DNA of 64,000 bases from a phage (GCA_012646185.1 GCA_012646185.1_4706.1); one strand, 5' to 3'. Counted from the stretch's first letter, positions 8,494-14,214 are shown. Notes: generated from the sequence alone by a model not told the origin. A program made the numbers and translations.

Positions 8494-8555
8494 CAAAAAA
8501 AAAAAAATAGGAAAATAGGAAAAACGGTGTTCACCCCTAAAAAGGATGAACACCG
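8494..8555 (-). terminator. intrinsic terminator for minus-strand transcript: 9-bp stem hairpin (8525-8555) followed by a T14 run (A14 on plus, 8494-8507)
   Basis: Inverted repeat cggtgttca/tgaacaccg with 13-nt loop, directly after stop of 8576-9154 gene. Confidence 0.6.
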
Positions 8556-8575
8556 CGTACCGTTATATCGAACGA

Positions 8576-9154
8576 TTAGTAAGGAATCAGATCGTTAAGC
8601 TTTTCTTCTTCAATGACAAAGAAGTTGTTCTGGTCGTCTAAATCTGTTAACATGACTTGTCCGACAGTAAAGCACGTACCGCCCTTCTTAGGCATCCATA
8701 CCGGCTCATTCGTTACCTTATCGGGATACCATTTGAAACGATTGGTATCCAAGAAGAACGCTGCTTTGTTCGCTTTATCGGTTGAACGATAGCTAACCAA
8801 TGCAGGCCACTCAATCCAGGTGTTTGTGCATGGTACATGTAAAGGATACCAGGCACGCCAGCGTTTGCCTGGGTTGCTAGGATCAACCCAATACTCGGCA
8901 GTCAATACAGCATCTTTATAGTGTTTCTGCATTAACATTTCGAGCACAAGCTCATTACCTTTTGATGCATCTAAAGTCACTTCAGCCATATAAAGAGATT
9001 TAGGTAATTCAGACTGTTTTGCGGTTGGTGTTACAACGCCGGTAACCAACGGTCTGCTCGGTTTACGTTTCTGTTCTTTCCGACGTGTGTAAAAGAATAG
9101 TCCGACAGATACGGCAACAAGTATAATAAACAACACTACCTTAATCCAATTCAT
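8576..9154 (-). CDS. membrane-anchored hypothetical protein (192 aa, single N-terminal TM helix)
   Basis: N-terminus MNWIKVVLFIILVAVSVGLFFY followed by a basic stretch; 4-nt overlap with upstream gene. Confidence 0.6.
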   Translation of the reverse strand: MNWIKVVLFIILVAVSVGLFFYTRRKEQKRKPSRPLVTGVVTPTAKQSELPKSLYMAEVTLDASKGNELVLEMLMQKHYKDAVLTAEYWVDPSNPGKRWRAWYPLHVPCTNTWIEWPALVSYRSTDKANKAAFFLDTNRFKWYPDKVTNEPVWMPKKGGTCFTVGQVMLTDLDDQNNFFVIEEEKLNDLIPY

Positions 9155-9974: not shown

Positions 9975-10505
9975 TTAATTCTGACTTCTCACCTTTTCTA
10001 CCGCTTCAAGAATAGCGTCGTTTAGCCGTTCTCCACGTTCCTCCATTGTCTCATCGCCACTATCTATGTAATTAACGGAATGGATACCCCACGCCCAATA
10101 ACGTGTGTCCATCGACTCTTCTTCCTGGGTAGGATCGTATAATCGACTCGCATTGATGGTCCAGACGTAATCAGCCGACTGTTGTAATAAACATTCACCA
10201 ATAGCGTTTATGTAAGACAGCCCTTCGGTTGTTACCGCAACGATCACGTGCGGGTGCTTACGAACAACTTTTGTGGTTGTTTTCCCATCAACAACCACTT
10301 TACGAGTTACGTTATCGTGTCCTTCGCATGACCACATCGGTGCGATACCAGGCGCGTCCAGTAACGCCCGGCAGGCTGGTAAGATACGTGGTTCGATTTC
10401 ACCTTCTTCGATAGCAGCCCGTGCGCGCTCTTTAAAACGCACCAGTTGTTCTTCAGTGACAACAAAAGAAAACATAATTACTCCTTTCTGGTTCTTCCCC
10501 TCCAC
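9975..10505 (-). CDS. hypothetical protein (176 aa)
   Basis: Long ORF, co-oriented. Confidence 0.55.
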   Translation of the reverse strand: MEGKNQKGVIMFSFVVTEEQLVRFKERARAAIEEGEIEPRILPACRALLDAPGIAPMWSCEGHDNVTRKVVVDGKTTTKVVRKHPHVIVAVTTEGLSYINAIGECLLQQSADYVWTINASRLYDPTQEEESMDTRYWAWGIHSVNYIDSGDETMEERGERLNDAILEAVEKVRSQN

Positions 10506-10546
10506 AGCCTCAGGAAGAGAAGAACCGTTTGCTAAGTTGTTATGTA

Positions 10547-10804
10547 TTAAAATGCATTGATTGGACTGTTCAACGCTTTATCACGGATTTGAATCGCCGC
10601 CAGCATTGCTTTCTGGTACGAATCGTAGGCATCGACAGAAACCGTCATATCAACCAATTCCTTTAATGCGGATTCAGCCGCTTTTACACGGACGCGGAAC
10701 TTGGTGATGGCGTTATCTTTGTTACGATAAACCGTGATGTGGTGCAGCGGTTGAACGTTAGTTTTATTAGTTTTAACGGATTTAGTCGCTTTGATCGTTT
10801 TCAT
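10547..10804 (-). CDS. hypothetical protein (85 aa)
   Basis: ORF with AAGGAAA before ATG at 10804. Confidence 0.45.
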   Translation of the reverse strand: MKTIKATKSVKTNKTNVQPLHHITVYRNKDNAITKFRVRVKAAESALKELVDMTVSVDAYDSYQKAMLAAIQIRDKALNSPINAF

Positions 10805-10848
10805 GATGATTTCCTTCTTTATTAGGATGATTACATTTAGTCAGTTTG

Positions 10849-10883
10849 ACAGCATAAACCCTTCCTGCTTTACGCAGGAAGGG
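10849..10883 (-). terminator. GC hairpin (ccttcctgc/gcaggaagg) followed on minus strand by GTTTATGCTG box
   Basis: Inverted repeat 10859-10868/10874-10883 with 5-nt loop, between stop of 10898-11395 and start of 10547-10804. Confidence 0.45.
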
Positions 10884-10897
10884 CATACGGATTTGTT

Positions 10898-11395
10898 TTA
10901 CGTGTGTCGTCGTTTACCAAAGAAAATGTGGCTATCTACCACGGTGATATTGGTAGCATGTTTTCTGAAATGTTTAGGGCGAAGATGTTTCGCGTTAAAG
11001 AATACGGCTCCTCGTGTTGGGTCGGCTTTATGGTAAGCCGTAATGTCGGTATAACGTAATGTTGCGACCTCTCGTGCTATTGCTCTTGCTCGCTCAAAAG
11101 CAGCACGATCGCGTATGACAATACGCCTTTGTTTTGTCCAGGGGAATTGACCTCTTTGCAGTACGACGTCTTTGACGTTCGTAGGGAATCGGTAGTCCAT
11201 AGATCGATTATGTATTAAAAACGCCACGGAGTATTGCCCTTTTACAGATTCGCCTCTGGCTTCCATATACACAGCACATGCGACGATCTCTTTCCGGCAA
11301 TCGATTCTAGGCCCTGCGTTCACTGATGCTTGACTGAACGGTGTAATAAGCAACATAACAAGCCCTAAAATCAACGTGTGTAAAATACCTTGCAT
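10898..11395 (-). CDS. secreted cell wall hydrolase, SleB/CwlJ-like (Hydrolase_2 family), candidate endolysin
   Basis: Signal-peptide-like N-terminus MQGILHTLILGLVMLLITPFSQASV; motif MEARGESVKGQYSVAFLIHNRS...RFPTNVKDVVLQRGQFPW matches the SleB-type hydrolase signature. Confidence 0.65.
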   Translation of the reverse strand: MQGILHTLILGLVMLLITPFSQASVNAGPRIDCRKEIVACAVYMEARGESVKGQYSVAFLIHNRSMDYRFPTNVKDVVLQRGQFPWTKQRRIVIRDRAAFERARAIAREVATLRYTDITAYHKADPTRGAVFFNAKHLRPKHFRKHATNITVVDSHIFFGKRRHT

Positions 11396-11647
11396 CTTAA
11401 TAACCTCACGATAAGGTGCTGTCCACTGGCGTCTTGATAACGCATCCCGTCATCGGGTTGTTCTATTCAGCGGGCAGCAGGTTAGCGTCAGATGTTTGCC
11501 CGACATCCACGACAGAAATAAACGGTACTGAAATTACGGTCTCCTCTGGTTTGGCAATAAACATAACGTTGGATAACAGAACCCATTTCCCGCATCCAAC
11601 GCGGTAAAGGTGTACATCGTTTGAATTCATATAGTTTCTCAAAGATG

Positions 11648-12016
11648 TTAACCTCTACCGTCAAGCCATAGGTTGTATTTATCCCGAACATACGGATCGC
11701 GATAAATACGTCGATAGACTTGATGTGGTATAAACTTGCAATGTACGAGTTCGTCGCTTAATTTATGCCGTCGCTCCATACCGTTGTGAATACGACGTAT
11801 CTCCCGGATATTAAAGGTTGTTTTATTCAAGAGAATAGACATAATGGCAGATCGATGATCCAGATTAAAGATCGCCATCACGCTTCGTATCTCGCGTAAA
11901 ACAACTTCTCTATCGACAAGGATGCGATTAGTTAACTTAAGATTCTCCGTGATACCCATAACCTTCATCCTCGACACGTCGACACATCGGTAAAAATAAA
12001 CACCAGCTTGTTGCAC
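11648..12016 (-). CDS. hypothetical protein (122 aa)
   Basis: ORF co-oriented; overlaps next ORF. Confidence 0.45.
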   Translation of the reverse strand: MQQAGVYFYRCVDVSRMKVMGITENLKLTNRILVDREVVLREIRSVMAIFNLDHRSAIMSILLNKTTFNIREIRRIHNGMERRHKLSDELVHCKFIPHQVYRRIYRDPYVRDKYNLWLDGRG

Positions 12017-12308
12017 TGAGGATCGCCGTTGCGATGATATTTGCTATATCACTCAGTCGAGCATCGACCTGCCACATAACAAGCATGAAAAGAACGTACG
12101 CGAACCCATACACGACAAACCGTCTGATGTTACGCGTCGACCACGTACAAATATACAAAAGGGGAAGCTGCCCTATAACACAAACGATGGTTCGGATAAC
12201 GTAATAAACGCGTTCCGTCGTTGTTTCAAAATCGATATTCGTTGCAGAAATCCCAATCATTATAAAAGTGAAAATGAAATAGATTTTTGCGTATGTCTTT
12301 AAACTCAT
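11937..12308 (-). CDS. multi-pass membrane protein (123 aa), holin-like candidate
   Basis: Several hydrophobic segments (IYFIFTFIMIGISA, LPLLYICTW, VVYGFAYVLFMLVMW); lies in the lysis-like cluster. Confidence 0.5.
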   Translation of the reverse strand: MSLKTYAKIYFIFTFIMIGISATNIDFETTTERVYYVIRTIVCVIGQLPLLYICTWSTRNIRRFVVYGFAYVLFMLVMWQVDARLSDIANIIATAILSATSWCLFLPMCRRVEDEGYGYHGES

Positions 12309-12324
12309 GGCTTTTCCCGATCGT

Positions 12325-12519
12325 TTATTTGTGTTTTCCTACATTCCTCAACAAGGTAACGATAACGAATACCGCTATCATCAAGAAGACGAACCATAAC
12401 CCTACGTTAATTCGGGCAGCAGGTTCATCGACCATGAAGAACATCATCCCACAAAACCCAATGACCATCCATGCTAGAACCATCCCCGTTAATCCCCGTA
12501 GTAGCATATGTCCCATCAT
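12325..12519 (-). CDS. small two-TM membrane protein (~64 aa from revised start)
   Basis: Start moved to ATG at 12519 (MMGHMLL), preceded by GAAGGAG; hydrophobic segments LTGMVLAWMVIGFCGMMFF and LWFVFLMIAVFVIVTLL. Confidence 0.5.
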   Translation of the reverse strand: MMGHMLLRGLTGMVLAWMVIGFCGMMFFMVDEPAARINVGLWFVFLMIAVFVIVTLLRNVGKHK

Positions 12520-12692
12520 GAACTCCTTCCTACTTTTTCTGATAAAGCGATGATTCAAATTTTAGAAACACCGCTAACGCGAGTGCGATTAATAACGCAC
12601 GTACCCACATACCTCCTTGACAACTGTTGTACAACATAAAGACCAGAGCAATGCCGCCCATATGCAGGCGGCACTTATCGAACAATGTTGGT

Positions 12693-12920
12693 TTATACAT
12701 AAGAGATTAAACGTTGAATGATTTTTACTTTGCCTTTACCTGGACCTTTCTTGCGGCGATTCAACAGACGGATACTGTTTCCAGTTACGGTGTCGCCATC
12801 ATAATCAGCCTGGAACTGTGATAAAAAAGCAGGTTGTATCTGATCGACACCAGGATTGCTGTGGAAAGGATTGAGGCTTAAAAGAGGGTTAGCTGGAATC
12901 ATCGTATTGTCCTTACTCAA
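12693..12920 (-). CDS. hypothetical protein (75 aa)
   Basis: Short ORF, co-oriented; weak support. Confidence 0.35.
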   Translation of the reverse strand: MSKDNTMIPANPLLSLNPFHSNPGVDQIQPAFLSQFQADYDGDTVTGNSIRLLNRRKKGPGKGKVKIIQRLISYV

Positions 12921-13271
12921 TTATTTACCCAGATAGAGATATTCACCGCCCTGAACAACACCGGTTGCTGGATCAACAAGTATACGAACCCGCGCGTAGG
13001 TCTTGAAAGAGGGGTTGAAAACTTCGAAGTCTGCCACTTTCAATTTCACGCTGGGGTTGGTAGGGTTCTTAACTCCAGGGAGTTCTTTCGGGGTACCGAA
13101 ATCAACACCGCATTCTTCAAGGTCTGCTGGCGTCATGCTCTCCATGGCCATGTAGATTGCTTTTGCTTTATCGTAAACTTCTGGGCTATCCAGCAATCCA
13201 GCCTGCGCTGAACCGACAACACTACCGAACAGAATAGCAACAGCAACAAACAATTTAGTTAACGTTTTCAT
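12921..13271 (-). CDS. small secreted protein (116 aa)
   Basis: Signal-peptide-like N-terminus MKTLTKLFVAVAILFGSVVGSAQA; no lipobox cysteine. Confidence 0.55.
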   Translation of the reverse strand: MKTLTKLFVAVAILFGSVVGSAQAGLLDSPEVYDKAKAIYMAMESMTPADLEECGVDFGTPKELPGVKNPTNPSVKLKVADFEVFNPSFKTYARVRILVDPATGVVQGGEYLYLGK

Positions 13272-13307
13272 GATATTTTCCTCGAAAGTAAAATGTTACA
13301 ATACCTA

Positions 13308-13730
13308 TTAACGTACGGCCGCTACGCTGTTAGCGCATGCCTGAATATCATCGGTATTTACGATGATGGTTTCGTTAAACGCACGAATACGCGCACGACG
13401 TGCTTCTTTAAGGCTGGCGATTGCGCTAGCAGCTTGATCTGTATTCGCAAGGCTAATAACCGGGATCAAACGCATGTCAGGACTGCAGATATTCAATGCT
13501 TGGTATACACGTCCATTGATTCCTACGGTATCAGACATCGGATAGTGCGCACGGCATTGAAATTGACCCATGACAACAAGCGAACGATCGGAGATACCAA
13601 TTTGATAACGCCCGTCTTCGCTGTAGGCGTAGCAGTTATTCCCACGAGCCATCCAGTTAGCCTGTGCTTGCGTGCTAACAAAAGCCAGAGTGGTAACGAT
13701 AGCGAATACGATATTTTTGAACAGTTTCAT
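13308..13730 (-). CDS. small secreted protein (140 aa)
   Basis: Signal-peptide-like N-terminus MKLFKNIVFAIVTTLAFVSTQAQA; AAGGA before ATG. Confidence 0.55.
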   Translation of the reverse strand: MKLFKNIVFAIVTTLAFVSTQAQANWMARGNNCYAYSEDGRYQIGISDRSLVVMGQFQCRAHYPMSDTVGINGRVYQALNICSPDMRLIPVISLANTDQAASAIASLKEARRARIRAFNETIIVNTDDIQACANSVAAVR

Positions 13731-13788
13731 GATAAAGATCCTTATTGAAATAAAATCGGTATAAAGGCCCCCATTTAGGGGGACCTGA

Positions 13789-14106
13789 TTAGTTTGCGCG
13801 TAAGAAATGACCCAGAACCGTTACGATTGGAAACAGCCCTGTAACAGTATCATCGCCCGAAAACATCATCATTGTTCCGTTAACGGTGATGAAACGGATG
13901 TCGGTTGCGGACCCATCGATAGCGACAAAACGCATCGAGTTCGGTGGAAGGTCCTCAACCACTTCCACGAGATACTCGCGATTATCAAAGGCTTCTTTAA
14001 CACGACGCATGAAACGAATCAATGTTCCTTCCGCGTCGGCTTCCAAATGACCTAAGATATCGCGATTATTACGACTAGCAAATACAGCCATTTTAAACAT
14101 ACACAT
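13789..14106 (-). CDS. hypothetical protein (105 aa)
   Basis: ORF with AAAAGGA before ATG at 14106; conserved 20-mer about 70 nt upstream. Confidence 0.5.
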   Translation of the reverse strand: MCMFKMAVFASRNNRDILGHLEADAEGTLIRFMRRVKEAFDNREYLVEVVEDLPPNSMRFVAIDGSATDIRFITVNGTMMMFSGDDTVTGLFPIVTVLGHFLRAN

Positions 14107-14176
14107 CTTGACATCCTTTTATATTGGATTGATTGCTAATAGTTCAAGGTGAAGCTGATTACTGCATTGCTTCACC

Positions 14177-14196
14177 TAAGTAATATAGCCGTGAAA
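14177..14196 (-). promoter_or_regulatory. conserved 20-mer taagtaatatagccgtgaaa (minus-sense TTTCACGGCTATATTACTTA), candidate early promoter element
   Basis: Identical 20-mer recurs at 42189-42208; both are intergenic and upstream of minus-strand genes; contains TATATTAC. Confidence 0.4.
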
Positions 14197-14214
14197 ATTA
14201 ATGTATTAACCTAT

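Follow-up and report, generated by a model that had tools for sequence, protein, structure and literature searches.

When a phage encodes a cell-wall hydrolase amid small membrane and periplasmic proteins, is the cluster a lysis cassette? The question arises at positions 10,898–13,730 of a 64,000-nucleotide (nt) stretch of phage DNA (GCA_012646185.1 GCA_012646185.1_4706.1; 'the window' is this whole stretch), where an initial annotation read a lysis-like cluster built around a SleB-type hydrolase. A secreted muralytic enzyme does lie among small membrane and periplasmic proteins, but the genes belong to an early transcription class, the lineage has a separate late muramidase of family GH108, and one of the membrane proteins, gp100, is dispensable. 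We therefore put the probability at roughly 0.55 that the cluster is an early block of envelope-targeted accessory genes with an auxiliary hydrolase, and probably not a lysis cassette. It may contribute to lysis.

Timing and gene content of the cluster

The locus is that of Escherichia phage vB_EcoM_Goslar (NC_048170.1), a 237-kb nucleus-forming jumbo phage (Chimalliviridae). The window corresponds to about 99.6–163.6 kb of Goslar in the same orientation. Positions 10500–14200 align without gaps to Goslar 110110–113810 at 96.9% identity, and the counterpart of 10898–13730 is gp098–gp104 (110508–113340). Gene order is the same in both phages, and Goslar gp098 is already annotated as 'endolysin' with a Hydrolase_2 domain. 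The difference of about 3% falls mostly within gp100 and gp102, and the Goslar record has no annotation for a membrane protein of 56 amino acids (aa) and a conserved leader that we describe below. All elements lie where the initial annotation placed them. It described the neighbors as following the hydrolase, however, and every cluster gene is encoded on the minus strand, so the hydrolase is the last gene in transcription order, not the first.

The evidence on timing comes from published transcriptomics. Armbruster et al. (bioRxiv 10.1101/2023.09.20.558163) compared Goslar RNA at 30 min between a control and a knock-down of ChmA, the nuclear-shell protein; the knock-down transcriptome matches wild-type infection at 5–20 min. 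Sup. Table 2 of that preprint is bimodal. Late genes, those for capsid and tail included, drop by 3–7 log2 units, and gp094–gp105 keep their read counts upon this pre-nucleus arrest, with log2 fold changes (log2FC) of +0.9 to +1.5 for gp098–gp104. The hydrolase gene gp098 has 636, 743 and 699 reads in the control and 488, 494 and 621 in the knock-down (normalized log2FC about +1). The muramidase gene gp024 goes from 271, 366 and 372 reads to 4, 4 and 4, a fall of about 30-fold, like the structural genes. These data are from Goslar itself and are transferred by inference to the window's phage, which is 97% identical. In them gp098–gp104 do not show the late expression of a canonical lysis cassette.

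The block has a defined end. The gp094 homologue is its last gene, and an intrinsic terminator downstream coincides with the switch in the RNA-seq data from gp094 (log2FC +0.65, early) to gp093 (−5.4 to −6.6, late). Read density is uniform across gp094–gp106. Undiminished counts in the arrest, a terminator at the early/late switch and even read density together place the cluster in the distal part of an early, pre-nucleus block.

In Goslar, gp096–gp105 have log2FC values of +0.9 to +1.5 and gp106–gp155 mostly lie between about −0.6 and +0.8; the homologues of gp106–gp159 occupy window positions 14107–43100. The data suggest two early sub-classes, and a promoter within the 108 nt that precede the gp105 homologue (approximately 14107–14214). 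No repeated early-promoter motif emerged from a simple count of k-mers.

The features of the locus are as follows, in window coordinates.

8524..8556, minus strand: strong intrinsic terminator between gp094 and gp093, a 15-base-pair stem followed by a T run
8576..9154, minus strand: gp094 homologue, a 192-aa type II membrane protein (N-terminal anchor; hydropathy 2.64 at residues 3–21)
10898..11395, minus strand: gp098 homologue (99.4% aa identity), a SleB/CwlJ-type cell-wall hydrolase of 165 aa with a predicted cleavable Sec signal peptide
11396..11647, minus strand: ultraconserved 252-nt stretch between gp099 and the hydrolase, unannotated, a possible structured leader
11463–11630, minus strand: 55-codon open reading frame (ORF) of doubtful coding status inside the 252-nt stretch; 5 of 5 substitutions non-synonymous
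11648..11959, minus strand: gp099 homologue, a soluble basic protein of 103 aa (isoelectric point 10.3, no hydrophobic segment) with a conserved C-terminus ...KYNLWLDGRG
11937..12308, minus strand: gp100 homologue, a 123-aa inner-membrane protein with four hydrophobic segments, from hydropathy peaks
12325..12516, minus strand: gp101 homologue, 63 aa, two transmembrane (TM) segments (hydropathy 2.2 and 2.9) and a basic C-terminus RNVGKHK
12530..12700, minus strand: orfX, a hydrophobic protein of 56 aa, unannotated in Goslar; a 43-aa ORF extended to an upstream ATG
12693..12902, minus strand: gp102 homologue, a 69-aa soluble protein with a cationic C-terminal tail RLLNRRKKGPGKGKVKIIQRLISYV and no hydrophobic segment
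12921..13271, minus strand: gp103 homologue, a secreted periplasmic protein of 116 aa, predicted signal peptide ...VGSAQA|G
13308..13730, minus strand: gp104 homologue, a secreted periplasmic protein of 140 aa with four conserved Cys, predicted signal peptide ...STQAQA|N

The two small multi-TM proteins (gp100, gp101) and two small secreted proteins (gp103, gp104) of the initial annotation are thus present. The hydrolase gene was already known from GenBank/RefSeq and belongs to a large uncharacterized group of phage SleB-like secreted hydrolases; the gene cluster is not a recognized system. New here are its re-reading through published transcriptomics, a small gene that had been overlooked, a gene fission that connects the phage to an island family, and the ultraconserved leader.

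The hydrolase, its relatives and candidate lysis genes elsewhere

The hydrolase matches Pfam Hydrolase_2 (PF07486) over profile positions 1–100 of 100, at 59.3 bits (cut-off 27) and E 6e-16, which bears out its assignment to the SleB/CwlJ group. It also matches PHROG 938 'endolysin'. Its segment AVYMEARGES aligns with AVYGESRGEP of the Bacillus SleB structures 4F55 and 4FET, and a check for missing catalytic residues found the motif intact. The first Glu of this motif (Glu45) is presumably the catalytic residue, as in the SleB structures. E45, R47, G48 and E49 of the Y-x-E-x-R-G-E motif are invariant across Goslar-like, T5-like and rV5-like homologues. A GAGG Shine-Dalgarno sequence lies 8 nt upstream of the ATG. 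A 1-nt indel excludes the in-frame upstream extension that the relative L008 shows.

At the N-terminus, MQGILHTLILGLVMLLITPFSQA|SV, a strongly hydrophobic core of Leu, Ile and Val is combined with Pro at −6 and with small residues at −3 and −1. Residues 1–23 are accordingly of the signal-peptidase I pattern, and we predict a Sec signal peptide with export and cleavage; signal peptides were judged throughout by inspection and hydropathy, and on this basis the N-terminal signal sequence claimed earlier is upheld. Sequence features and conservation in homologues also give the enzyme the signal peptide of a Sec-secreted endolysin of the fOg44 Lys44 type, with cleavage predicted only. A signal-arrest-release (SAR) endolysin was considered and rejected. 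The core ILHTLILGLVMLLITPF is rich in Leu/Ile/Val, with mean hydropathy 1.97 and about 22% small or polar residues, and is followed by P-F-S-Q-A|S, by inspection a site of the signal-peptidase I type.

The enzyme is not a true SleB orthologue, since it scores 41.4 bits against the spore SleB equivalog TIGR02869 (cut-off 236.5) and only the catalytic part (residues 34–158) matches. Bacillus spore SleB has an N-terminal PG_binding_1 domain, where the phage hydrolase has a signal peptide instead. SleB and its partner YpeB act on spores in Bacillus, and the spore cortex cannot be the substrate of the phage enzyme.

A signal-bearing SleB enzyme had been called an unusual endolysin choice. This does not hold: SleB homologues occur in approximately 1,039 phage records, and the signal-peptide-bearing ones include that of T5 (annotated 'sleB'). 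The enzymes of T5-like phages (T5 sleB, Epseptimavirus) and of rV5-like phages (Vequintavirinae; CR3_087, CR9 gp095, CB7_83) share the Hydrolase_2 domain, the motif and the signal peptide with the window hydrolase. Their length is about 150–175 aa, their genes are found in non-structural regions, and their genomes encode another peptidoglycan hydrolase as well. For CB7, the homologue's signal peptide is described together with a separate T5-type peptidase and a spanin pair elsewhere in the genome (PMC7344957). Because signal-bearing homologues are widespread and sit beside separate hydrolases, a secreted SleB-type enzyme is a common accessory gene of virulent enterobacterial phages.

The window hydrolase differs from these enzymes in sequence and in setting. 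Identity is only 24–38%, and among the matches listed the nearest phage homologue outside the Goslar lineage is 38% identical. A word-seeded search for intermediate relatives found only proteins 87–98% identical, the next phage homologues among the matches listed being at most 38% identical. The T5-like and rV5-like genes are solitary. In the T5-like phage atrejo and the rV5-like CR9, the signal-peptide-bearing homologue has only soluble small proteins around it and no membrane proteins, and lies close to genes for RNase H, helicase and primase. The window hydrolase instead closes a run of membrane and periplasmic genes, follows a 252-nt leader and belongs to a chimallivirus.

Among jumbo phages the enzyme is restricted. 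The approximately 100 matches listed include no phage above 200 kb other than Goslar, so the SleB gene is Goslar-lineage-specific among the jumbo phages listed, whereas gp024 is conserved across related jumbo phages. Goslar gp024 (L002 17700–18335, outside the window) is a soluble 211-aa muramidase with Glyco_hydro_108 (GH108) and PG_binding_3 domains. Orthologues with 43–53% identity occur in Pseudomonas phage PaBG, the SPN3US group, and Erwinia, Vibrio, Proteus and Klebsiella/Serratia jumbo phages. Further viral contigs of the Goslar type, among them the genome with L008 and L025, contain copies at 92–98% identity. The lysis reading was vulnerable to a canonical endolysin elsewhere in the genome, and gp024 is a candidate for such a gene in Goslar and in a Goslar-like genome. 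RefSeq labels two Goslar genes 'endolysin', gp024 and gp098. A third peptidoglycan hydrolase domain is found in the giant Goslar tail protein gp204, the counterpart of phiKZ gp181.

Of the parts of a canonical lysis cassette, the window hydrolase provides the muralytic enzyme. The candidates for a holin, gp101 and orfX, fit in size and topology, yet match no holin family (Pfam, PHROG, NCBIfam). A six-frame lipobox scan of the window found no convincing lipoprotein, only antisense or out-of-frame artefacts; the initial annotation was right that no spanin pair with a lipobox is to be seen there. A known chimallivirus cassette looks different. That of phiKZ consists of gp141 (i-spanin), gp141.1 (o-spanin), gp142 (class III holin), gp143 (regulator) and gp144 (transglycosylase) (Manohar et al. 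2026, PMC12894885). Both clusters combine a muralytic enzyme with membrane proteins. The phiKZ genes, however, lie among tail genes and include a lipobox o-spanin and a soluble endolysin, whereas the window cluster has no lipobox, a secreted enzyme and early genes. A sensitive tblastn search of phiKZ gp141–144 against Goslar and the window found nothing below E 0.2.

Two late-class Goslar genes outside the window are candidates for the actual lysis machinery. gp085 (L003 43878–44447) encodes a protein with a single TM domain that enterobacterial chimalliviruses share; it is kept in PCH45, PhiEaH1, Moabite-like and Klebsiella jumbo phages. The sole clear lipoprotein gene in Goslar is gp088 (L003 47923–48426), and no membrane-protein gene directly precedes it. 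DUF7941 and tail-fibre genes are close to the two candidates, which in sequence are unlike the holin and spanins of phiKZ.

The leader, the secreted pair and the other neighbors

No other part of the locus is as conserved as the 252-nt stretch upstream of the hydrolase. It is 97–99% identical across six Goslar-like genomes, in which the flanking genes are 57–92% identical. It differs from Goslar at 2 positions. Against L008 it is 97% identical, with flanking genes at 57% and 92%, and against L013 it is 98.5–99.5% identical, a level that just two segments reach over some 18 kb. The most distant copy (L017) matches exactly over the first approximately 195 nt and the last approximately 45 nt, and only the 35 nt or so in between are replaced. 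We found no Rfam family, tRNA or second genomic copy for this stretch, and no match in other phages or E. coli genomes.

The RNA is predicted to fold with a minimum free energy of −71.3 kcal/mol (z = −2.06). Six of 7 variable sites are unpaired in this structure and the paired stems are invariant; the variable 35 nt or so sit at the apex of a conserved helix. In the predicted folds of the window, L008 and L017, a 5' CAUCUU right after the gp099 stop pairs with the AAGAUG that holds the hydrolase start codon, and part of the hydrolase Shine-Dalgarno sequence is paired as well. The 55-codon ORF fills the first conserved block, and its end is the end of conservation in L017. With five non-synonymous changes and zero synonymous ones, the constraint looks to be at the nucleotide level. 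The folds suggest, with low confidence, a leader that limits or couples hydrolase translation.

The secreted pair has relatives in bacteria. A word-seeded search with gp104 returned only Goslar-like copies. An exhaustive HMMER search with a gp104 profile, however, matched the N-terminal 140 aa or so of P0008 (E 1e-8) and of P0010–P0012 (E 2e-4 to 4e-4), proteins that have a conserved Trp and four Cys in common with gp104. Mature gp103 matches the C-terminal 70 residues or so of P0008 and P0012 (pairwise BLASTP E 2e-5 and 8e-6), with the shared motif FEV[YF]N..[YF][KR].Y..V.V and an ending G[RK]. As gp104 matches the N-domain and gp103 the C-domain, sequence comparison identifies the pair as a split homologue of one two-domain periplasmic protein of enterobacterial genomic islands (e.g. 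WP_309046913.1), and not as spanins. In the phage version the domains are separate genes, each half with its own predicted signal peptide.

The island family comprises about 80 clusters in Klebsiella, Enterobacter, Citrobacter, Salmonella, Serratia and E. coli, all 'hypothetical', with no Pfam or NCBIfam model. In some members the gp104-like domain is paired with a different C-terminal domain, or with none. The genes (loci L019–L023) lie in CP4-like islands, between a YeeP/YkfA-type GTPase gene and DUF932, anti-restriction, RadC and CbtA/CbeA genes. Two Goslar-like metagenome contigs (L015 and L016), one labelled human gut metagenome, carry more diverged copies of gp104 (83% identical) and gp103. 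Goslar-like contigs in metagenome assemblies make the lineage broader than a single isolate.

Modeled alone from a shallow alignment, gp104 gave an unusable AlphaFold model (predicted local distance difference test score, pLDDT, 60). The fused homologue P0012, with a 35-sequence alignment, reached pLDDT 75, with 80–90 inside domains (82–92 in the C-domain). Its N-domain is modeled as a beta-rich fold plus a helix, and its C-domain, the gp103 part, as a helix packed on a four-stranded sheet. A Foldseek search with this model found nothing below E 1e-3. The structural match list reads as follows.

Designed cystatin-fold protein: 7.4
Bartonella IalB: 6.2, 95 residues aligned
YpeB C-terminal (PepSY) region: 6.1
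YpmB: 5.5
Colicin M immunity protein: 5.0

YpeB is the spore partner of SleB, and the fold resemblance of the modeled gp103 domain to it is a lead, not a result. An identity of gp103 as PepSY (PF03413) or YpeB was rejected: a gp103-family profile finds no PepSY protein by sequence, and the resemblance is at the level of the fold only.

Among the membrane proteins, orfX is a real gene. The initial annotation had read a 43-aa hydrophobic ORF at about 12530–12661; the ORF stands, and a start at 12700 (56 aa) is more likely than the shorter version. With this start, orfX shares 8 nt with the stop end of gp102. Its 5 nucleotide differences from Goslar are without exception synonymous, and in the more distant relative L008 the ORF is intact at the same length, its N-terminal 13 residues included. 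It has one clear hydrophobic segment (residues 30–48). Metagenome gene callers did not call it either.

The gp101 homologue has a strong ribosome-binding site (AGGAAGGAG). The gene is conserved in all relatives examined and of the early class in Goslar; the protein looks like a class II holin in predicted topology only, and matches no family in Pfam, PHROG or NCBIfam. The gp100 homologue differs from Goslar at 11 aa, concentrated in the first TM segment. The gene varies and is dispensable: the window, Goslar, L013 and L014 have it, and L008 (7417–7444) and L018 do not. Its presence or absence and the strong divergence of the adjoining gp099 between these two groups mark a mosaic junction. In L008, gp099 is present at 57% nt identity. 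The gp102 homologue is fast-evolving, with 8 of 69 aa different from Goslar. Searches of the hydrolase's neighbors against Pfam, PHROG and NCBIfam gave nothing at E < 0.001, and neither gp099 (all three databases) nor gp102 (Pfam or PHROG) has a family match.

Competing explanations and meaning

Several observations weigh against the accessory reading, and most of them favor the SleB enzyme as the working endolysin, or one of two. The enzyme would then be Sec-exported all through infection and build up harmlessly in the periplasm until gp101, the 56-aa protein or both depolarize the membrane in the manner of a pinholin, resembling Oenococcus phage fOg44 Lys44 or SAR-endolysin/pinholin pairs, with the outer membrane broken without spanins. 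Catalytic motif and predicted export signal are intact, RefSeq and PHROG label the protein endolysin, and two adjacent conserved small membrane proteins are of holin-like size and class-II-like topology, one with a basic C-terminus. CB7_83 is toxic when expressed in E. coli, and the CR3 homologue is cited as implicated in lysis (PMC7344957). The rival muramidase gp024 lies outside the window and is known from Goslar and its relatives. It was also found in purified Goslar virions (10 peptides, an estimated 50–120 copies; bioRxiv 10.64898/2026.04.21.720040, Table S4), so it could be an entry lysin rather than an endolysin; that preparation also held chimallin and PhuZ contaminants. Goslar has no recognizable homologues of the phiKZ holin, regulator, spanins or endolysin. 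Early transcription, known from Goslar and not from the window's phage, is no proof of early or sub-lytic activity, and the leader could delay translation. Even so, we consider an endolysin role unlikely. The gene is of the early class with reads undiminished under pre-nucleus arrest, and the other jumbo phages listed lack the enzyme and retain gp024 orthologues. The T5-like and rV5-like homologues sit beside a separate endolysin and do not adjoin membrane proteins. The Leu/Ile/Val-rich N-terminus with its AXA site is not SAR-like, the double Met of gp101 is not kept in L008, and no holin family is matched.

The remaining explanations concern the neighbors as much as the enzyme. In T4, the small two-TM protein Imm and Sp, a periplasmic inhibitor of the incoming tail lysozyme, are early gene products that act in superinfection exclusion. 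The window block could be an exclusion or envelope-defence module made early, in which the gp104/gp103 pair and the small membrane proteins would keep out competing phages or DNA, with the hydrolase an unrelated neighbor or restrained by the periplasmic pair. Like the T4 genes, it is early and pairs a small two-TM inner-membrane protein with Sec-secreted periplasmic ones, a likeness of predicted topology only. As cargo of CP4-like islands beside anti-restriction, RadC and toxin-antitoxin genes, the gp104/gp103 homologues occupy a typical element-protecting setting, and gp100 and gp102 come and go or evolve fast, as conflict genes would. We rate this somewhat lower again, as a doubtful alternative: no similarity to Imm, Sp or any Pfam, PHROG or NCBIfam family was detected, there is no sequence link to PepSY, and Goslar has no known exclusion phenotype. 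That the genes are merely moron-like neighbors brought together by mosaic accident in a plastic early region is improbable. It would fit the varying presence of gp100, the divergence of gp099, the mosaic pattern of local identity to relatives, the SleB homologues elsewhere without such neighbors and the several C-terminal partners of the gp104-like domain. Envelope-addressed genes nevertheless make up 6 of 8 in the cluster against about 16 of 250 genome-wide (post hoc hypergeometric P ~7e-7), the order gp104-gp103-gp102-orfX-gp101-(gp100)-gp099-leader-SleB is kept in 6/6 Goslar-like genomes examined, and gp104 and gp103 are linked by fusion in bacteria. Equally a long shot is a regulated pre-nucleus module for wall remodeling, in which a leader-gated SleB enzyme would have its periplasmic activity tuned by gp104/gp103, with a cystatin/PepSY-like fold of gp103, as in the SleB–YpeB pair of Bacillus spores.

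The accessory reading that we prefer can be put as a sequence of events. The block from gp105 to gp094 (window approximately 14106 to 8576, minus strand) would be transcribed by the virion RNA polymerase before the phage nucleus forms. It would encode two Sec-secreted periplasmic proteins, three or four small inner-membrane proteins and, as the final gene of the cluster, the SleB/CwlJ enzyme. Translation of the hydrolase may be restrained by the 252-nt leader, through pairing of the start codon and part of the ribosome-binding site, as the predicted folds hint. The enzyme would be exported and its predicted signal peptide cleaved, and it would then act as an accessory, sub-lytic remodeler of the periplasmic wall, to judge from T5-like and rV5-like counterparts that coexist with a separate endolysin. 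Its small membrane and periplasmic neighbors most likely alter or protect the envelope, for example through superinfection exclusion or by controlling the hydrolase, and do not serve as holin and spanins. Terminal lysis would more likely be the work of gp024, the conserved GH108 muramidase of the late class, together with late membrane proteins from other parts of the genome.

For the lysis of E. coli by Goslar-type phages, timing and conservation direct attention to gp024 and the late membrane proteins. The SleB-type enzyme would then be an early, secreted wall enzyme. If the wall-remodeling module were true, the sacculus might be loosened for the large rotating nucleus and the virion bouquets, or primed for abrupt lysis, and the approximately 1,000 SleB-like genes of T5-like and rV5-like phages would share an unrecognized pre-lysis function. 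For a model jumbo phage, the analysis adds three testable items to the annotation: a membrane gene that had been missed, a gene fission and an ultraconserved leader. The question of what such an enzyme is for extends to the approximately 1,000 T5-like and rV5-like genomes in which such genes are routinely annotated 'endolysin', and it therefore affects the mining of phage lysins for antibacterials.

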